NCBI RefSeq assembly: GCF_013315695.1
Contig: NZ_CP054353.1
From: Escherichia coli
GTDB lineage: Bacteria > Pseudomonadota > Gammaproteobacteria > Enterobacterales > Enterobacteriaceae
Reading direction: 5' to 3' (one strand)
Length of the DNA stretch: 64,000 bases
Below, in pieces: positions 15,797 through 51,941 of this stretch. A program made the translations under genes and the position numbers. The notes beneath the pieces were generated by a model. That model saw only the letters and a program-made list of their open reading frames with translations. It was not told the DNA's origin and made no database searches. Numbering within the stretch: position 1 is the stretch's first letter; every line of letters starts with the position of its first letter.

Positions 15797-15906
15797 GCGA
15801 GCAGCATTCCTGATTTTAAACGTGAACGTCGTTGGAAGAATTAACAGGTATAGAATGGCGTTGGGTGCTTGAGGCTGTCTGGCGTTAAGCATTCGCGAGG
15901 TTCCAG

Positions 15907-16008
15907 ATGGACAAAAGCCCCAGGCGATATTTCTATCAACCTGAGGCCAGCGTTCGAACCCAAACAATTCGAATGTTAGTCTCTTCTTTGCAGGGAGGCA
16001 AGACATGC
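15907..16008 (+). CDS. mok-like upstream reading frame, translationally coupled to hok
   Basis: 33-codon ORF ([15 protein letters not shown]...GGKTC) with a GAGG RBS; its TGA stop overlaps the hok ATG (ATGCTGA), the arrangement typical of hok/mok loci. Confidence 0.35.
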
Positions 16009-16157
16009 TGACAAAATATGCCCTTGTGGCAATCATAGTGCTGTGTTTTACAGTACTGGGATTCACGCTGATGGTAGGCGACTCGTTGTGTGAGTTGAGT
16101 ATCAGAGAACGTGGTATGGAGTTTAAGGCGGTTCTCGCTTACGAATCGAAGAAGTAG
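16005..16157 (+). CDS. hokX: Hok/Gef-family type I toxin (50 aa), apparently intact
   Basis: [50 protein letters not shown]: single TM helix followed by the conserved SLCE...AYES motif of Hok/Gef; GGAGG RBS; a GC hairpin (CGCGGGG-GTAAAA-CCCCGCG, 16164-16183) lies just downstream. Symbol by position between cysH and cas3. Confidence 0.7.
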
Positions 16158-36345: not shown

Positions 36346-36413
36346 GTATGGGGAGTTGGTGTGTTTCGTCGCCTGGATAAGACACGTCAGCGTCCCATCC
36401 GGCAATCAACATC

Positions 36414-36821
36414 CTATTTGCTCATCATCTTGCGCACCAGCTGCATAAACAGCTCCTGCTCTTCTCCACTCAAACGCCCCAAAAATTCCTCATCCACACT
36501 GTCGCCAATCGGTATCGCCGCAGCAAGTACCTTTTCTCCTTCGGCAGTCAGCCAGACAAAGCGTCGCCGCTTATCAGCGGCGTCATGTTCACGTCTGACT
36601 AAGCCACGATTTTCCATTCTTGCCAACATTTCTGCCAGCGTTGCTTTGGTGCTGACTGCTGCTTCTATCAGTGCCACCTGTTCGATACCAGGCTTATCAG
36701 CAATGGCGCGCATCACCGCGTACTGTGGTTTGGTCAGGTCAGGTAACTCGTGCTGCCAGCGGGCCGTATGCTGCTGAAAAAGCTGTCGTAACTGATGGAA
36801 CGCTTTATTTCGTAACGCCAT
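36414..36821 (-). CDS. hosA: MarR/SlyA-family transcriptional regulator
   Basis: 135-aa ORF with a winged-helix MarR fold (TKPQYAVMRAIADKPGIEQVALIEAAVSTKATLAEMLARMENRGLV); divergent from the decarboxylase genes. Symbol from memory of the E. coli rpoS-mutS variable region. Confidence 0.75.
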   Translation of the reverse strand: MALRNKAFHQLRQLFQQHTARWQHELPDLTKPQYAVMRAIADKPGIEQVALIEAAVSTKATLAEMLARMENRGLVRREHDAADKRRRFVWLTAEGEKVLAAAIPIGDSVDEEFLGRLSGEEQELFMQLVRKMMSK

Positions 36822-36936
36822 GTAAACTCCGGGCTAATTCTCTGTCGCTATCATAGCGGTTTTTCAGTGACGAAGAAGATGTTGTTACTTTTCAATCCTT
36901 GCCGCTGTGGAAATGAAGGAGTATGTTAATAATAAC

Positions 36937-36950
36937 GTTCGTATACGAAC
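36937..36950. promoter_or_regulatory. Perfect 14-bp palindrome, candidate MarR-family operator
   Basis: GTTCGTATACGAAC lies 18 bp upstream of the ecdB start codon in the hosA/ecdB divergent region. Confidence 0.4.
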
Positions 36951-36967
36951 AATTAAGAGAGTAAGCA

Positions 36968-37561
36968 ATGAAACTGATCGTCGGGATGACAGGGGCTACC
37001 GGTGCGCCTCTTGGTGTGGCATTACTGCAAGCGCTGCGGGAGATGCCGAATGTCGAGACTCATCTGGTGATGTCGACGTGGGCGAAAACCACCATTGAAC
37101 TGGAAACGCCTTACAGCGCTCGCGATGTTGCTGCCCTCGCAGACTTCAGCCATAACTCGGCGGATCAGGCGGCGACCATCTCCTCAGGTTCCTTTCGTAC
37201 CGACGGCATGATCGTTATTCCGTGCAGTATGAAAACGCTCGCCGGTATCCGTGCCGGTTACGCCGATGGCCTGGTAGGGCGCGCGGCGGACGTCGTGCTC
37301 AAAGAAGGCCGCAAACTGGTGCTGGTGCCGCGTGAAATGCCGCTTAGCACCATCCATCTCGAAAATATGCTCGCACTTTCGCGCATGGGCGTGGCGATGG
37401 TGCCGCCGATGCCTGCCTTTTATAACCATCCCGAAACGGTAGATGACATTGTCCAGCACGTGGTAGCCCGCGTGCTGGATCAATTTGGCCTCGAACATCC
37501 TCACGCCAGGCGCTGGCAAGGATTGTCGCAGACCCGGAATTTTTCTCAGGAGAATGAATAA
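36968..37561 (+). CDS. ecdB: UbiX-like flavin prenyltransferase (prenyl-FMN synthase), decarboxylase subunit B
   Basis: 197-aa ORF MKLIVGMTGATGAPLGV... with UbiX/Pad1 flavoprotein signature. Confidence 0.85.
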   Translation: MKLIVGMTGATGAPLGVALLQALREMPNVETHLVMSTWAKTTIELETPYSARDVAALADFSHNSADQAATISSGSFRTDGMIVIPCSMKTLAGIRAGYADGLVGRAADVVLKEGRKLVLVPREMPLSTIHLENMLALSRMGVAMVPPMPAFYNHPETVDDIVQHVVARVLDQFGLEHPHARRWQGLSQTRNFSQENE

Positions 37562-38988
37562 TGGCATTTGATGATTTACGCAGCTTTTTACAGGCGCTCG
37601 ACGACCATGGGCAATTGCTGAAAATCAGCGAAGAGGTGAACGCAGAACCGGATCTGGCAGCCGCAGCCAACGCCACCGGGCGTATCGGCGACGGCGCGCC
37701 AGCGCTGTGGTTTGATAATATTCGCGGCTTTACCGATGCCCGCGTGGCGATGAACACCATCGGTTCCTGGCAGAACCACGCGATTTCCCTCGGCCTGCCG
37801 CCAAATACCCCGGTTAAAAAACAGATCGATGAGTTTATCCGCCGCTGGGACAACTTCCCGATTGCCCCGGAACGCCGAGCCAATCCAGCCTGGGCGCAGA
37901 ACACCGTCGATGGAGACGAGATCAACCTGTTCGATATCCTGCCGCTGTTTCGTTTAAACGATGGCGATGGCGGTTTCTATCTCGACAAAGCGTGCGTGGT
38001 TTCCCGCGATCCGCTTGATCCGGATAACTTCGGCAAGCAGAACGTCGGTATCTACCGCATGGAAGTGAAGGGCAAACGTAAGCTCGGCCTGCAACCGGTG
38101 CCGATGCACGATATCGCCCTGCATCTGCATAAAGCGGAAGAGCGCGGTGAAGATCTGCCGATTGCGATCACCCTCGGTAACGATCCGATCATCACGCTGA
38201 TGGGGGCCACGCCGCTGAAATATGATCAGTCCGAGTACGAAATGGCAGGCGCGCTGCGTGAAAGCCCGTACCCGATCGCCACCGCCCCGCTGACTGGTTT
38301 TGATGTGCCGTGGGGTTCAGAAGTGATCCTCGAAGGGGTTATCGAAAGTCGTAAACGTGAGATCGAAGGGCCGTTCGGTGAGTTTACCGGCCACTACTCC
38401 GGTGGGCGCAACATGACCGTGGTGCGCATCGATAAAGTCTCTTACCGCACGAAACCGATTTTCGAATCGCTGTACCTCGGCATGCCGTGGACGGAAATCG
38501 ACTATCTGATGGGGCCAGCCACCTGCGTGCCGCTGTATCAGCAACTGAAAGCCGAGTTCCCGGAAGTGCAGGCGGTGAACGCCATGTACACCCACGGCCT
38601 GCTGGCGATTATCTCCACCAAAAAACGCTACGGTGGCTTTGCCCGCGCGGTGGGCCTGCGTGCGATGACCACGCCGCACGGTCTGGGCTATGTGAAGATG
38701 GTGATTATGGTCGATGAAGACGTTGATCCGTTCAACCTGCCGCAGGTGATGTGGGCGCTCTCCTCGAAAGTGAACCCGGCAGGGGATTTGGTGCAGTTGC
38801 CGAATATGTCCGTGCTGGAACTCGACCCAGGCTCAAGCCCGGCGGGGATCACCGACAAGCTGATTATCGACGCCACCACGCCTGTCGCCCCGGACAACCG
38901 TGGTCACTACAGTCAGCCGGTGGTGGATTTACCGGAAACCAAAGCCTGGGCTGAAAAACTGACCGCTATGCTGGCCGCACGTCAATAA
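37561..38988 (+). CDS. ecdC: UbiD-family (prenyl-FMN-dependent) aromatic acid decarboxylase subunit C
   Basis: 475-aa UbiD-family ORF; start overlaps the ecdB stop. Confidence 0.85.
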   Translation: MAFDDLRSFLQALDDHGQLLKISEEVNAEPDLAAAANATGRIGDGAPALWFDNIRGFTDARVAMNTIGSWQNHAISLGLPPNTPVKKQIDEFIRRWDNFPIAPERRANPAWAQNTVDGDEINLFDILPLFRLNDGDGGFYLDKACVVSRDPLDPDNFGKQNVGIYRMEVKGKRKLGLQPVPMHDIALHLHKAEERGEDLPIAITLGNDPIITLMGATPLKYDQSEYEMAGALRESPYPIATAPLTGFDVPWGSEVILEGVIESRKREIEGPFGEFTGHYSGGRNMTVVRIDKVSYRTKPIFESLYLGMPWTEIDYLMGPATCVPLYQQLKAEFPEVQAVNAMYTHGLLAIISTKKRYGGFARAVGLRAMTTPHGLGYVKMVIMVDEDVDPFNLPQVMWALSSKVNPAGDLVQLPNMSVLELDPGSSPAGITDKLIIDATTPVAPDNRGHYSQPVVDLPETKAWAEKLTAMLAARQ

Positions 38989-38998
38989 GGAGAACAAG

Positions 38999-39235
38999 AT
39001 GATTTGTCCACGTTGTGCTGATGAACAGATTGAAGTGATGGCGAAATCGCCGGTAAAAGATGTCTGGACGGTCTACCAGTGCCAGCATTGCCTCTATACC
39101 TGGCGCGATACCGAACCGCTGCGCCGCACCAGCCGCGAACATTATCCCGAAGCGTTCCGCATGACGCAGAAAGATATTGATGACGCGCCGATGGTGCCGA
39201 GCATCCCGCCGCTGCTGGCGGAAGGTAAGCGCTAA
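38999..39235 (+). CDS. ecdD: Small zinc-ribbon decarboxylase subunit D
   Basis: 78-aa ORF with CPRC...CQHC cysteine pairs; last gene of the ecdBCD-type operon. Confidence 0.75.
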   Translation: MICPRCADEQIEVMAKSPVKDVWTVYQCQHCLYTWRDTEPLRRTSREHYPEAFRMTQKDIDDAPMVPSIPPLLAEGKR

Positions 39236-39240
39236 ATAAA

Positions 39241-42146: not shown

Positions 42147-43405
42147 GATAAAAACTCTCTTTGGGCTCGTGAAAAAAAGGCTTCATCACCGAAGTTGCCA
42201 GATTTAAGGGCGAGTGAGACAGGCTTATCCAGTGCGTTTACCCACGGCACGCCAGGGGAAATGGTTGGGCCAATATGAAACCCTTTTATTCCCAGGCTCT
42301 GTGTGACTACGCCGGAGGTCTCACCGCCTGCGACAATAAAGCGTGTCACGCCTTCCGCTGCTAACCGCGCCGCTAGTTGAGAAAACAGTGTTTCTACTGC
42401 CTGACTGGCTTTTTGTGCACCGTATTGCTGTTGAATTGCTGCCAATGCGTCAGTGCTTGCGGTGGCAAAAACCAGTGGAGCAAGTACACTTTCCTGGCCC
42501 AGAACCCACTCTGCCAGTTCGTGTGCATAAGCGGCCAGAGTTTCAATTGAGAGGCAGCGTGCCACATCAACTTCACGGGCTGGTGCAATTTGACGGTAAT
42601 GTGCTACCTGGCGGTTGGTCATTTGAGAGCATGAACCGGAGAGCACTACGCCGCGCCCAGCGAGCGGATGCCCTGCTTTGCGAGCCTGGTTACCGTTTTC
42701 TTGCGCCCACTGCCGGGCAAGGCCAATCGCCAGACCAGAACCGCCCGTTACCAGTGGGGCATCGCGCAAGGCTTCTCCCTGAATTTCCAGATGGTATTCG
42801 GTCAGCGCATCAAGCACCGCGTAGCGGTAGCCCTCTTGCTGTAAGCGAGCCAGCTCTTGACGAACGGCATCCACACCTTGTTCGAAAACATGTGCCGAAA
42901 CGACGCCGCAGCGCCCTGTGGATTGCGCTTCAACCAGACGGGGAAGATAGCTGTCGGTCATGGGATTTACCGGGTGATGGCGCATCCCGGATTCGGCCAG
43001 CAGTTGATTCATTACGAACAAATACCCCTGATAAACCGTACGTCCGTTGACCGGCAGGGCCGGAGAGAAGACCGTAAACGGCGTGTCGAGAGCATCCATT
43101 AATGCATCGGTAACCGGGCCGATATTACCTTTCGCCGTACTGTCGAAAGTAGAGCAGTATTTGAAATAGATCTGTTTGCAACCTTGCTGTTGCAACCAGC
43201 TCAGAGCCGCCAGCGATTGCTGTGTGGCTTCAACCACCGGACAGGAACGCGTTTTCAGGCTGATCACCAGTGCGTCGATTGCTTCCGGCATTTTACCTGT
43301 TGGAACACCGTTAATTTGTACCGTTGGTAGACCGTTTTCCACCAGAAAACTGGCGATATCCGTCGCGCCGGTAAAATCATCGGCGATAACGCCAATCTTG
43401 ATCAT
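42143..43405 (-). CDS. ygbK: Four-carbon acid sugar kinase (3-oxo-tetronate kinase type)
   Basis: 420-aa ORF MIKIGVIADDFTGATD... (DUF1537/DUF2090-type kinase); ATGA overlap with ygbJ. Confidence 0.8.
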   Translation of the reverse strand: MIKIGVIADDFTGATDIASFLVENGLPTVQINGVPTGKMPEAIDALVISLKTRSCPVVEATQQSLAALSWLQQQGCKQIYFKYCSTFDSTAKGNIGPVTDALMDALDTPFTVFSPALPVNGRTVYQGYLFVMNQLLAESGMRHHPVNPMTDSYLPRLVEAQSTGRCGVVSAHVFEQGVDAVRQELARLQQEGYRYAVLDALTEYHLEIQGEALRDAPLVTGGSGLAIGLARQWAQENGNQARKAGHPLAGRGVVLSGSCSQMTNRQVAHYRQIAPAREVDVARCLSIETLAAYAHELAEWVLGQESVLAPLVFATASTDALAAIQQQYGAQKASQAVETLFSQLAARLAAEGVTRFIVAGGETSGVVTQSLGIKGFHIGPTISPGVPWVNALDKPVSLALKSGNFGDEAFFSRAQREFLS

Positions 43406-44310
43406 GATTTCGCTCCCGGTAGAGTGATGCCAGAGAAAATCTTGATAACTGCGCTATCGTCTTCTTTCCCGTAACCCGCGTTACTGGCGCTGGTGAACAT
43501 ATTCAATGCTGTTGAGGCCAATGGCAGCGGGAAGTGCAGGGCTTTGGCTGTATCGGCAACCAGACCAAGATCCTTAACAAAAATATCGACGGCTGAATGC
43601 GGGGTGTAATCGCCATCCACCACATGACGCATCCGGTTTTCGAACATCCAGGAATTTCCGGCGGCATTGGTCACGACGTCATACATCACATCCAGCGGGA
43701 TCCCCGCACGGGCTGCAAGTGCCATCGCTTCGGCTCCGGCAGCAATATGTACGCCCGCTAACAACTGGTGAATAATTTTTACGGTCGAACCTGGTCCCGG
43801 TTCTGCACCTATGCGATAAACTTTTCCGGCAACGGCTTCCAGCACGGGTGCCAGTCGTTCAAAGGCAATATCGCTACCGGAGGCCATGACAGTCATTTCA
43901 CCGTTAGCGGCTTTTACTGCACCACCAGAAACTGGCGCATCCAGCATTTCCAGATCGAATCCAGCCAGAGCGGTAGCAATTTCTTGCGCATCAGCACTAG
44001 CGATAGTGGAAGAAACCATTACTGCCGTACCGGGTTTCAGATGTTGTGCAACGCCTGTTTCACCAAACAGCACCTGTTTAACCTGGGCCGCATTGACCAC
44101 CAGCACCAGCAGAGCGTCCAGTTTTTCGGCAAACGTCGCGGCGTTATCAGAAACCCCGCAAGCACCTGCCTCTTTCAACGTAGCGCAGGCATTGCTGTTC
44201 AGGTCTGCGCCCCAGGTAGAAAGACCTGCGCGGACACATGACAGTGCTGCTCCCATTCCCATTGACCCTAAGCCAACGATACCGACATGAAACTCAGATC
44301 CCGTTTTCAT
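43402..44310 (-). CDS. ygbJ: NAD-dependent 3-hydroxyisobutyrate dehydrogenase-family enzyme (L-threonate dehydrogenase type)
   Basis: 302-aa ORF with N-terminal Rossmann motif VGIVGLGSMGMGAA. Confidence 0.85.
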   Translation of the reverse strand: MKTGSEFHVGIVGLGSMGMGAALSCVRAGLSTWGADLNSNACATLKEAGACGVSDNAATFAEKLDALLVLVVNAAQVKQVLFGETGVAQHLKPGTAVMVSSTIASADAQEIATALAGFDLEMLDAPVSGGAVKAANGEMTVMASGSDIAFERLAPVLEAVAGKVYRIGAEPGPGSTVKIIHQLLAGVHIAAGAEAMALAARAGIPLDVMYDVVTNAAGNSWMFENRMRHVVDGDYTPHSAVDIFVKDLGLVADTAKALHFPLPLASTALNMFTSASNAGYGKEDDSAVIKIFSGITLPGAKS

Positions 44311-44381
44311 CTGCTCTCCTTGTTAATTTAAGTGATATTTTGTTTGATATTGTGAATATAAGCGCTGGAAGATAACGATAT

Positions 44382-44397
44382 GGTGAGCTGATTCACA
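44382..44397. promoter_or_regulatory. CRP-like site in the ygbJ/ygbI divergent region
   Basis: GGTGAGCTGATTCACA matches TGTGA-N6-TCACA with one mismatch; additional TGTGAA motifs at 44351 and 44423 may be DeoR-type operator repeats. Confidence 0.3.
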
Positions 44398-44475
44398 AAA
44401 ATTAACATTGTGTGTTATTTTATGTGAACTAAGCGTTAGTTGCGCCGCGCACGTTTCGCAGGCAAATAGCGTAGA

Positions 44476-45273
44476 ATGTCAGCAGGACAAAGGAAGGAGC
44501 AAAAGTTGATACCCGTAGAGCGTCGCCAAATCATCCTTGAGATGGTAGCTGAAAAAGGCATTGTCAGTATTGCTGAACTAACGGACAGAATGAATGTGTC
44601 ACATATGACCATTCGTCGGGATTTACAAAAACTGGAGCAGCAGGGAGCCGTTGTGCTGGTGTCCGGAGGCGTCCAGTCTCCGGGACGCGTGGCGCATGAA
44701 CCTTCTCATCAGGTAAAAACTGCGCTGGCAATGACGCAAAAAGCGGCTATTGGCAAGCTGGCGGCAAGTCTTGTTCAGCCGGGAAGTTGTATCTATCTGG
44801 ATGCGGGAACGACCACGCTAGCGATAGCACAGCATCTGATTCACATGGAGTCACTGACTGTGGTCACAAACGATTTCGTTATTGCGGACTACTTGCTCGA
44901 CAACAGTAATTGCACAATTATTCACACTGGCGGTGCAGTGTGTCGGGAAAACCGTTCCTGTGTCGGGGAAGCCGCTGCGACCATGCTGCGCAGCCTGATG
45001 ATTGATCAGGCTTTTATTTCTGCATCGTCATGGAGTGTGCGGGGGATTTCTACGCCAGCGGAAGATAAAGTCACGGTGAAACGGGCGATTGCCAGTGCCA
45101 GCCGCCAGCGAGTTTTGGTCTGTGATGCGACGAAATATGGTCAGGTGGCGACATGGCTGGCGTTACCATTAAGCGAGTTTGATCAGATTATTACAGACGA
45201 CGGTTTGCCGGAGAGTGCCAGTCGCGCGCTGGCGAAGCAGGATCTCTCTTTGCTGGTAGCGAAAAATGAATAA
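44476..45273 (+). CDS. ygbI: DeoR-family transcriptional regulator
   Basis: N-terminal HTH (SIAELTDRMNVSHMTIRRDL) plus DeoR C-terminal sensor domain; an alternative TTG start 10 codons downstream (MIPVERRQ...) follows a GGAGG-like RBS. Confidence 0.8.
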   Translation: MSAGQRKEQKLIPVERRQIILEMVAEKGIVSIAELTDRMNVSHMTIRRDLQKLEQQGAVVLVSGGVQSPGRVAHEPSHQVKTALAMTQKAAIGKLAASLVQPGSCIYLDAGTTTLAIAQHLIHMESLTVVTNDFVIADYLLDNSNCTIIHTGGAVCRENRSCVGEAAATMLRSLMIDQAFISASSWSVRGISTPAEDKVTVKRAIASASRQRVLVCDATKYGQVATWLALPLSEFDQIITDDGLPESASRALAKQDLSLLVAKNE

Positions 45274-49789: not shown

Positions 49790-51868
49790 TTAAATCAATG
49801 CCGATTTATCAATTCCCAGTCGCTTCATCCGTGACAGCAGAGTCGTGCGTTTCAGCCCCAGACGTTGCGCAGCGCCTTTAGGCCCGGCAACCACGCCGTT
49901 TGTTTCTTTCAGCACGCGAACAATCAACTGATATTCATCTTCGCCCTCCTGGGCGACAACCGTTGCGGCAGGCGGCGTTTCAGGTTCTGGTAAAGCAATA
50001 TCTGGCAATGACAGCTGCAGCACGTTGCCGCGTGTTAGCAATACCGCGCGCTCGATGACGTTTTCCAGCTCACGCACGTTGCCCGGCCATTCCATGTTGC
50101 TCAGGATGCGCAGCGTCTCGGCAGGAATGCTGTCGATATTGCGCCCCAGACGACGGGCAATTTTGAAGGTAAAGGCTTTCGCCAGCAGCGGAATATCTTC
50201 CGGACGCTCGCGTAGTGGCGGCAGGTGGATCGGGAATACGTTCAGGCGGTAATAGAGATCACTACGGAACTCTCGGTCGGCGACCATTTTTTTCAGATCG
50301 CGGTTAGTCGCGGCAATTAAACGTACGTCCGTCTGAATGATTTTGTTGCTGCCGAGGCGTTCAAACTCCTGTTCCTGTAATACACGCAGCAACTTCGGCT
50401 GTAACTCCAGCGGCATATCGCCCACTTCGTCGAGGAACAGGGAGCTTTTATCCGCCAGTTCAAAACGACCAATGCGCTGGGCGCTGGCACCGGTAAAAGC
50501 CCCACGCTCATGACCAAACAGATCGCTCTCCAGCAATCCGGCAGGCATCGCCGCGCAGTTCATTTTTACCATGCGGCGATTATTACGCCCACTGAGATTA
50601 TGGATAGCACGGGCAATCAGCTCTTTACCCGTGCCAGTTTCACCGAGGATCAGCACGGTACTGTCACTTTGCGCCACCATTTCAACTTGTTTAAGCACGC
50701 TGTACATGGCTTCGCTGCGGCCAATAATCTCGCCAAATTCACTATCAACATTGTTGAGCTGCTCGGTCAGGGCGAGGTTTTCATCAACCAGCCGTTCTTT
50801 CAGACGATGGATTTCCTGATAGGCGAGGGCGTTATCGACAGCGATTGCCACACGTTCGGCAATCTGGCGCAGTAAATTCAGATTGGTAGTGGTAAACACT
50901 TTCTCTTCGCATTGCGCCAGTTTCAGCACGCCCAGCATGGTGTCGCCAGACATCAGCGGTAACAGGCACAAGGTTTGAATCTGGTTGCCCCAGGTGTCGA
51001 ACAACATGCGTTCATAGGGGGCTAAATCGTCCCGCTCGTGGAGATTAATCAACAGCATCTCTTTACTTTTGAAGACGCGTTCGGTGAGGGTTCCGGCTTC
51101 ATCGACTTCGCTCTGTTCGTGGGCGGGATGCTGTTTATCAAGATAGTGAGTGGAGTAGATGTTGAGTTTGTTTTTACGGTGGCTGCGTAAGACGATGCTG
51201 ATATCGTCAATGTCGAAGTAGTAATGGATTTCTTTGGCGACTTCGCTGACCAGTTCGTCCATATCCAGGCGGGAAAGCACCGCGTTGGTAATGGCAACCA
51301 GGATGCGGAAGTTATCGCGCTCCCGGCATAACAACTCATAGTCGACATTGTTAACGACGCGGCTCTGGATTTGTTCGGTGACGACCGAAACGATCTGCGT
51401 AAATGTTTGCAGACGATTGAACTCTTTTTCGCTCCAGGGGCGATCGTCATAACGAATAAATTCACAGCCACCAAAAATATGCCCTTCCGCCGCCAGTGGC
51501 ATCAGGCAATAGTGACCAAATTTGGGGTATAGTCCACCTGCGGCCAGCTGCGGCCAGGTTTCACAAAATTCTTCGTAACTGCAATGCAGCGTATCAGGGC
51601 GCGACAAAATGCTGCGTACCGGACCGTGTGCCAGAACAGTTTCGTCTTCATATTTAATGGGGGTGTCTTTTTCACGCGACGCGTAATAAGACGCACGTTG
51701 AGTCTGCGCTTGCCACAACACAATAGCCGCGTTGTCGGCGAGCGCAGAACGCTTTACCAGTTGCGAAAGAGCCTCACACAGCGAGGCCAGATCGGGCTGC
51801 TGCAATAGTGTCCGAGTGATGTCGAACAACCCTTGTTGTCCGAGATCACTCATCGGTGTATATGACAT
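49790..51868 (-). CDS. fhlA: Formate hydrogenlyase transcriptional activator (sigma-54 enhancer-binding protein)
   Basis: 692 aa from MSYTPMSDLGQQ...; GAF domains, AAA+ sigma-54 activation domain (GETGTGKE, GAFTGA) and C-terminal HTH. Confidence 0.9.
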   Translation of the reverse strand: MSYTPMSDLGQQGLFDITRTLLQQPDLASLCEALSQLVKRSALADNAAIVLWQAQTQRASYYASREKDTPIKYEDETVLAHGPVRSILSRPDTLHCSYEEFCETWPQLAAGGLYPKFGHYCLMPLAAEGHIFGGCEFIRYDDRPWSEKEFNRLQTFTQIVSVVTEQIQSRVVNNVDYELLCRERDNFRILVAITNAVLSRLDMDELVSEVAKEIHYYFDIDDISIVLRSHRKNKLNIYSTHYLDKQHPAHEQSEVDEAGTLTERVFKSKEMLLINLHERDDLAPYERMLFDTWGNQIQTLCLLPLMSGDTMLGVLKLAQCEEKVFTTTNLNLLRQIAERVAIAVDNALAYQEIHRLKERLVDENLALTEQLNNVDSEFGEIIGRSEAMYSVLKQVEMVAQSDSTVLILGETGTGKELIARAIHNLSGRNNRRMVKMNCAAMPAGLLESDLFGHERGAFTGASAQRIGRFELADKSSLFLDEVGDMPLELQPKLLRVLQEQEFERLGSNKIIQTDVRLIAATNRDLKKMVADREFRSDLYYRLNVFPIHLPPLRERPEDIPLLAKAFTFKIARRLGRNIDSIPAETLRILSNMEWPGNVRELENVIERAVLLTRGNVLQLSLPDIALPEPETPPAATVVAQEGEDEYQLIVRVLKETNGVVAGPKGAAQRLGLKRTTLLSRMKRLGIDKSALI

Positions 51869-51941
51869 TTTGTTCTTCCAGGAAAGCACCGCAAAGCGGT
51901 GCAAAAGGTCATTGACTAACTATAGGAGATTTAGAATTTTA

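Follow-up and report, generated by a model that had tools for sequence, protein, structure and literature searches.

A CRP site and candidate YgbI operators in the divergent ygbI/ygbJ control region of Escherichia coli

Results

The ygbI/ygbJ locus and the bounds of its spacer

The region studied here separates two divergently transcribed genes of Escherichia coli, and lies within the 64,000-nucleotide stretch of DNA that was analysed as a whole and to which we refer as the window. On the minus strand is ltnD (ygbJ; 43402-44310), assigned from RefSeq and Pfam to L-threonate dehydrogenase, which is the first gene of ygbJKLMN, carries an AGGAG Shine-Dalgarno sequence at 44316-44320 and is followed by otnK, ygbL, ygbM and ygbN. 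On the plus strand is ygbI (44506-45273), for which RefSeq annotates a TTG start and a product of 255 aa, a repressor of the DeoR family, and which is followed by pphB and mutS. Pfam finds an N-terminal DeoR-type HTH domain (HTH_DeoR, PF08220, 2.8e-16) and a C-terminal DeoRC sensor domain (PF00455, 2.5e-51) in YgbI, and among the cluster products an NAD-binding dehydrogenase, a DUF1537-type kinase and a class II aldolase. Such an arrangement, with ygbI divergent from ltnD-otnK-ygbLMN in the window and in 12 other lineages, is that of a DeoR/GlpR system.

An earlier, sequence-only reading of this DNA had ended the region at 44475, on the assumption that ygbI begins at ATG 44476, and here it needs correction, as both RefSeq and 5'-RACE point to TTG 44506. 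The mapped transcription start of ygbI (~44484/5) follows the -10 element CGTAGAAT and lies 9 nt inside the frame of ATG 44476, with a further 21 nt to the TTG (Mendoza-Vargas et al. 2009). ATG 44476 thus lies upstream of the mapped start, and the ribosome-binding site GGAAGGAG at 44492-44499 serves TTG 44506. With ygbI starting there, the true spacer is 44311-44505 (195 bp). Its left part has a GC content of only 31%, no terminator-like site was found in the region scanned around it (44200-44620), and no Rfam family matches the spacer region. Taken as a whole, the spacer is an ordinary control region, that of an operon by which E. coli uses a sugar acid (L-threonate).

The locus is common in the species: sequence with at least 95% identity to 43900-44900 is present in 4587 of 5426 complete E. 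coli genomes, all of the matching genomes annotate both ltnD (ygbJ, L-threonate dehydrogenase) and ygbI (DNA-binding transcriptional repressor YgbI), and the stretch is 100% identical to that of E. coli strain MS 21-1. The other 839 complete genomes (~15%) are without any ygbI/ygbJ spacer. Elsewhere in the same neighbourhood, the rpoS-ygbN interval of the window (~36400-39240) holds genes for a MarR-family regulator and for subunits B, C and D of hydroxyarylic acid decarboxylase. The mutS-rpoS region varies within E. coli, and both the absence of the spacer and the genes between rpoS and ygbN fit with this.

A CRP-binding site between ygbI and ygbJ

The sequence GGTGAGCTGATTCACA stands at exactly 44382-44397 and, as the sequence-only reading had noticed, departs from the CRP consensus TGTGA-N6-TCACA by a single mismatch, a G in place of the first T, so that the core of GGTGA-gctgat-TCACA agrees with the consensus at 9 of 10 bases. 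A 16-mer with at most one mismatch is not rare on its own, given that the window holds 5 of them against 1.79 expected; in the 195-bp spacer the expectation is ~0.005. We scored the region with a weight matrix built from 20-mers of the other 39 sites that the Footprint-seq table lists at below 10 nM. The window site scores 13.9 bits, within the range of the 39 training sites themselves (9.8-22.5 bits), and ranks second in the 64 kb; about 0.4 sites with this score or a higher one would be expected per 64 kb, and the score is attained by 0.27% of spacer shuffles. The best match in the window, ACTGTGATTACGATCACATT at 2904-2923, is the ygcW/yqcE site, which belongs to the training set and is listed at 1.7 nM in the Footprint-seq table (PMC12871828). 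A further match with one mismatch, TGTGAGAGTAGTCACG, was observed at 2849-2864, 42 bp from the ygcW/yqcE site.

The earlier suggestion that CRP binds here is borne out by published in vitro data. Wang, Stringer and Wade (2026; PMC12871828) report taTGTGAatcagaTCACCata as a previously undescribed CRP site of ygbI/ygbJ, footprinted with purified CRP at an estimated Kd of 8.4 nM, a value within the range that the authors deem regulatory. The footprinted sequence is the reverse complement of the GGTGAGCTGATTCACA site in its K-12 form. On the evidence of score, K-12 footprint and conservation (see below) we delimit the CRP binding site as GGTGAgctgatTCACA, at 44382-44397, without strand and with its centre at 44389.5. 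It is a real CRP binding site of the ygbI/ygbJ spacer, bound in vitro as the K-12 allele. Our literature search found no report of crp-dependent expression of ygbJKLMN in vivo, and the cluster is absent from the CRP regulon papers that this search returned.

Natural E. coli alleles of the CRP site

Between the window and K-12 the spacer differs at three positions (44378, 44387 and 44398), all of them in or adjoining the CRP site. The footprint is that of the K-12 allele; the window allele differs from it at a base between the two half-sites (44387) and at a flanking base (44398), and the K-12 form scores 2.8 bits higher, at 16.7 against 13.9. Counting exact matches of the 32-mer 44379-44410 in E. 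coli genomes, we found the window allele (G/A; 13.9 bits) in 1210 genomes, a G/T allele (14.25 bits) in 1885 and the K-12 allele (T/T; 16.7 bits) in 1038. The SNPs of 11 sampled E. coli haplotypes are at positions 44349, 44361, 44366, 44368, 44378, 44387, 44398 and 44411, and the CRP pentamers and the cores of the hexamers described in the next section are free of them. A difference in predicted strength between the natural E. coli alleles of the CRP site is a new and testable proposal.

Four repeat units as candidate YgbI operators

The sequence-only reading had also remarked on recurring TGTGAA motifs, and these are indeed found at 44351-44356 and 44423-44428. A third copy lies on the minus strand (TTCACA, 44392-44397), where it forms the right half-site of the CRP site. 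Three TGTGAA within 78 bp, compared with 26 per 64 kb, have a Poisson probability of ~5e-6, for a test that was picked post hoc. The motifs do not represent additional CRP half-sites; they are members of a conserved family of 16-nt repeats.

A repeat finder resolves this family into four 16-nt units with the consensus TGTTAAtttwWGTGAw, each of them made of two hexamers (TGTKAW) spaced by exactly 10 bp. U1 (TGTTAATTTAAGTGAT, 44321-44336, plus strand) has its hexamers at 44321 and 44331, and U2 (TGTTTGATATTGTGAA, 44341-44356, plus strand) at 44341 and 44351, the latter being the first TGTGAA. U3 (44392-44407) lies on the minus strand, where it reads TGTTAATTTTTGTGAA (TTCACAAAAATTAACA on the plus strand), and U4 (TGTTATTTTATGTGAA, 44413-44428, plus strand) contains the TGTGAA of 44423. 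U3 and U4 together make a 16-nt inverted repeat with a gap of 5 nt, centred on 44410 and 88% complementary. U3 also overlaps the CRP site by 6 bp, the right CRP pentamer TCACA being the outer end of the unit. The centres of U1 and U3, and likewise those of U2 and U4, are 71-72 bp apart, or ~7 helical turns.

WGTKA occurs 7 times in the spacer, compared with 2.15 expected (P=0.002), and same-strand pairs at exactly 10 bp occur 3 times, compared with 0.02 expected, a count attained by 0 of 5000 shuffles. A 15-nt pattern of the unit has 3 copies in the 64 kb window, all of them within the spacer, compared with 0.44 expected. Judged by their sequence and arrangement, U1-U4 are most likely YgbI operators. 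This candidate operator sequence is a new proposal, none having been published before.

Promoters of ygbJ and ygbI

On the minus strand we predict a ygbJ (ltnD) promoter with the -10 hexamer TATATT (44355-44360), which matches the -10 consensus at 5 of 6 positions and retains a conserved TAnnnT form; no -35 is recognisable, the best candidate matching at 2 of 6. The predicted start is ~44348, which would give a leader of 38 nt and would put the centre of the CRP site at -41.5. Relative to this predicted start, U2 would cover -8 to +8 and U1 +13 to +28, with U3 at -59 to -44 and U4 at -80 to -65. A usable -10 combined with a poor or absent -35 is characteristic of class II promoters, and from its sequence the ygbJ promoter is predicted to be one of these, with CRP at -41.5 of the predicted start, in AT-rich DNA (31% GC) that offers several other -10-like hexamers. 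A class II promoter for ltnD/ygbJ is again a new and testable proposal. Our literature search did not find a measured ygbJ start: where its mapping had been attempted (Mendoza-Vargas et al. 2009), the supplements give only primers.

The ygbI promoter has been mapped by 5'-RACE (Mendoza-Vargas et al. 2009), with the -10 hexamer TAGAAT at 44472-44477 on the plus strand, and AAATAGCGTAGAAT at this promoter is conserved in Enterobacteriaceae. From its start at ~44484/5 the CRP site lies at -94.5 or -95.5, which does not match the phasing usual for class I. Shimada et al. predict a different ygbJ promoter, TTCACA-16-GTTAAT, which would place the CRP site at about +1. We rejected their predicted ygbJ promoter, together with their second ygbI promoter, as neither is conserved outside those Enterobacteriaceae that carry U4.

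Conservation across Enterobacterales

Orthologous spacers were gathered by protein search, contig look-ups and tblastn against plasmids. There were 13 other sources of a ygbI spacer, namely E. albertii, Entomohabitans, Salmonella, Scandinavium, two further Enterobacteriaceae, a Citrobacter-type locus, Serratia, Pectobacterium, Dickeya, Pantoea, Yersinia massiliensis (where the first divergent gene is a DUF1537-type kinase, not ltnD) and a plasmid-borne copy. The resulting alignment comprises 15 spacers from ~13 lineages, with YgbI identity ranging from 96% down to about 59-60%.

Conservation in these 15 spacers is concentrated on the elements described above. Invariant are TGT.A, AGT, TG.T and TG..A, which are the four hexamers of U1 and U2, as well as the TCACA and T.AC of U3; in the left CRP half-site G78 is invariant and G76 and T77 nearly so, and the same is true, invariant or nearly so, of the T, A and T of TAnnnT on the minus strand. 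The stretch between the -10 and the CRP site consists of 21 unconserved bp, yet it contains zero indels, and a TAnnnT (TATATT, TACATT, TAAATT or TAATAT) stands at the fixed distance that gives CRP -41.5 in 14 of the 15 orthologues. The left CRP half-site is within the top 1-10% of half-site scores of its own spacer in 13 of 13 lineages, with a Fisher combination of 5e-10 that is overstated because the lineages are related. Whole-site scores of the orthologues range from 8.0 to 16.9 bits, and some are weak (8.0-9.5).

Other elements vary between lineages. The second hexamer of U2 is TGTTAA instead of TGTGAA in the more distant genera, and U4 is kept only in closer Enterobacteriaceae, being absent in Serratia, Pectobacterium, Dickeya, Pantoea and Yersinia. 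The spacer is longer, at 270-360 bp, in Serratia, Dickeya, Pectobacterium and the Citrobacter-type locus, and carries an extra unit, TGATAAnnAnTGTGA, beside the ygbI promoter. Finding the same unit close to both the ygbJ-proximal and the ygbI-proximal promoter is what would be expected, from sequence, of an autoregulating YgbI.

A ygbI-ltnD-otnK-aldolase cluster is also present on plasmids from Enterobacter, Klebsiella and Citrobacter, with 26 records at 80-90% identity; in the Enterobacter hormaechei plasmid pEh23_3 (IncFIC), for example, YgbI is 85% identical, the spacer has the same architecture, and the cluster adjoins recombinase and Rpn nuclease genes. In E. coli KFu019, from river water, the spacer is broken at about window position 44380, 2 bp to the left of the CRP site, by an insert which encodes a transposase, an HTH protein and a MerR-like repressor, resembles a transposable prophage of the Mu type and parts ygbI, U3, U4 and the CRP site from ltnD.

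Published YgbI repression and the ChIP-exo interval

Repression of the cluster by YgbI, which had been proposed from the sequence, agrees with published K-12 work, in which YgbI has a ChIP-exo site in the spacer and ygbJKLMN is derepressed in a ygbI knock-out. By ChIP-exo, Gao et al. (2021; PMC8464067) detected just one YgbI site, located in the ygbI/ygbJ spacer, and in their ygbI deletion ygbJ, K, L, M and N were up by 5.6, 5.2, 5.1, 4.6 and 4.0 log2 units, respectively; L-tartrate supported growth of the mutant. Overexpression of the cluster had been reported in earlier published work, in evolved strains mutated in ygbI. Given that only one genomic YgbI site was found (PMC8464067), no YgbI motif has been published.

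The ChIP-exo interval, given as 2859304-2859334 in old K-12 coordinates, converts to about 44428-44460 of the window (+/-3 bp). For this conversion we took the offset between the K-12 genome versions to be ~1977 bp. The converted interval falls in the ygbI/ygbJ spacer, as it does in the paper; it begins where U4 ends on its right side, covers the -35 region of the mapped ygbI promoter and does not overlap U1-U3 or the CRP site. The ChIP-exo border pairs of a large oligomer may report only one of its edges, and the interval neither disproves nor confirms the proposed operators. Beneath it, upstream of the ygbI -10, AACTAAgcgTTAGTT (44427-44441) forms a perfect palindrome. At the corresponding position another perfect palindrome, AACAAAccgTTTGTT, is present in Salmonella, and none in E. 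albertii. We rejected AACTAAgcgTTAGTT as the main YgbI operator, as it is absent in E. albertii, whose YgbI is 96% identical, and in other genera.

Discussion

Both YgbI repression (2021) and the CRP site (2026) were already published, and what our analysis adds is an inferred operator motif and a promoter architecture. We think it probable that the spacer is a divergent control region for ygbJKLMN, an L-threonate/4-carbon acid-sugar operon, and for ygbI, in which CRP acts as a general activator and YgbI as the specific repressor, through the class II and U1-U4 architecture set out above. CRP at -41.5 would activate ygbJ as it does at class II promoters. YgbI on U2 and U1 (-8 to +28) would block RNA polymerase, and U3 and U4 would form an inverted pair at -80 to -44; as the TCACA is common to U3 and the CRP site, bound YgbI would also exclude CRP. 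The spacing of the two arrays by ~7 turns (71-72 bp) implies that an oligomeric repressor could hold both of them and loop the promoter. The inducer is probably a phosphorylated pathway intermediate, which by releasing YgbI would free both the promoter and the CRP site.

A different reading of the CRP-like 16-mer is that it is a by-product of the YgbI operators, bound by CRP with no regulatory effect in vivo. The hexamers of the YgbI type (TGTGAA/TGTTAA) do resemble CRP half-sites, so that the conserved GTG and TCACA could serve YgbI: TCACA is the end of U3, and the distance between the first hexamer and the left half, GGTGAG, is 61 bp, which keeps this half approximately in phase with the array along the helix. 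The lack of in vivo CRP reports in our literature search and the scores of only 8-9.5 bits in several orthologues would also agree with this reading. On the other hand, purified CRP protects the site at nanomolar Kd (8.4 nM; PMC12871828), and the left half faces U3 head-to-head across a 6-bp gap, a geometry unique among the hexamer pairs here. The conserved TAnnnT keeps its -41.5 distance in 14 of 15 orthologues, and carbon-source operons with a DeoR-type repressor are usually activated by CRP too (PMC12632272). On this balance we regard a mere by-product as rather unlikely. Chance resemblance in AT-rich, H-NS-bound intergenic DNA, with the 16-mer and the TGTGAA motifs both functionless, is far less credible. 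About 1.8 matches with at most one mismatch are expected per 64 kb, the left spacer is 31% GC and Shimada et al. flag the spacer as H-NS-associated; against this, the matrix score is reached by 0.27% of spacer shuffles and the 10-bp phasing by none of 5000, the motifs are conserved in ~13 lineages where adjacent bases are not, and binding of both CRP and YgbI in the spacer has been published. The published binding data together with the conservation effectively refute it.

CRP might also control ygbI, or repress ygbJ, rather than activate the latter. Repression would follow from the ygbJ promoter of Shimada et al., with its -35 at 44428-44423, its -10 at 44406-44401 and a start at ~44394, where CRP would sit on the start site. 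Control of ygbI would require a second ygbI promoter, TTCACA-18-TATTTT, with a start at ~44428. This promoter is indeed returned by a consensus scan of the plus strand, and has the TG of an extended -10; both alternative promoters were predicted by Shimada et al., and a ygbI start at ~44428 would put the CRP centre at about -38.5. Both are, though, sequence predictions only, and the -35 of the one and the putative -10 of the other lie inside U4, the unit missing from Serratia, Pectobacterium, Dickeya, Pantoea and Yersinia, where the CRP site and a TATATT/TACATT hexamer are retained. The sole mapped ygbI start (~44484/5), for its part, puts CRP at -94.5/-95.5, off class I phasing. We thus hold either variant to be improbable, more so than the by-product reading, and retain CRP activation of ygbJ combined with YgbI repression as the preferred account.

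A bolder extension of the preferred account is that the TGTGA half-site of the operator mimics a CRP half-site, a single TCACA being recognised by both proteins, that YgbI exerts dual repression in this way across Enterobacterales and that the CRP-site alleles set induced levels; we offer it tentatively, as possible but less probable than not. If true, dual repression would combine a block of RNA polymerase (-8 to +28) with displacement of the activator (-44 to -59), the two arrays being connected by a loop of ~72 bp, and the alleles (13.9, 14.3 and 16.7 bits) would set lineage-specific induced threonate catabolism. Beyond annotation the significance of the region is small, as a repressor combined with CRP is the textbook pattern for a secondary carbon source. 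The three proposals made here bear on the use of L-threonate/erythronate (ascorbate breakdown product) by gut Enterobacteriaceae.

The proposed architecture has close relatives among characterised systems. Like the units described here, the operator half-sites of both DeoR (TGTTAGAA.TTCTAACA) and GlpR (WATGTTCGWT) begin with TGTT. The deoCABD and glp systems of E. coli likewise combine a DeoR-family repressor (DeoR or GlpR) with cAMP-CRP activation of a carbon-source operon (PMC12632272), and they too have several operators, including ones over the -10 and start, and an oligomeric repressor bridging distant operators. They differ in that the ygbJ unit consists of two hexamers in direct orientation at a spacing of 10 bp (TGTTAA-N4-WGTGA) and not of a compact palindrome, in that one of the candidate operators shares 5-6 bp with the CRP site, and in the pathway (L-threonate/D-erythronate) and inducer. 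For the combination of a DeoR-family repressor with CRP at class II sites near -41.5, glpD, deoCABD and MtnR provide precedents (PMC12632272). At the class II promoters galP1 and melR, CRP at -41.5 replaces the -35 and is accompanied by a good -10; at ygbJ the same position is counted from a predicted start.

The MtnR (YjhU)/CRP system of the DHAP-shunt operon (J Bacteriol 2025, PMC12632272) is similar in that a DeoR-family repressor gene adjoins an accessory catabolic operon, that the CRP site has a class II-like placement with overlap of the -35 region, that a putative repressor site lies over the -10 and that not all strains of the species carry the locus. In orientation the two differ, mtnR and its operon being convergent and ygbI divergent, and for MtnR the starts, a crp-deletion phenotype and a CRP gel shift have been measured, compared with an in vitro CRP footprint and a YgbI knock-out for ygbJ. 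Brucella abortus VdtR (PMC10580937) is a DeoR-family repressor of a homologous ltnD/otnK erythronate/threonate cluster and binds the ltnD promoter in gel shifts. That cluster is induced by acid sugars in vivo and VdtR is not released by them in vitro, which points to a downstream intermediate as effector. VdtR differs in coming from an alphaproteobacterium and in having no reported CRP involvement.

A few further observations concern other parts of the window or the database matches. A full-length sok antitoxin RNA (Rfam RF01794, 111 bits) at 15863-16020 on the plus strand indicates a hok/sok-type toxin-antitoxin locus on the chromosome. At ~49790-51904, the gene labelled 'flhA: formate hydrogenlyase transcriptional activator' is marked as frameshifted (a pseudogene) in the identical RefSeq genome. 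Finally, a 99%-identical E. coli ygbI occurs on a contig labelled as an Oscillospiraceae metagenome-assembled genome, most likely through contamination of the bin.
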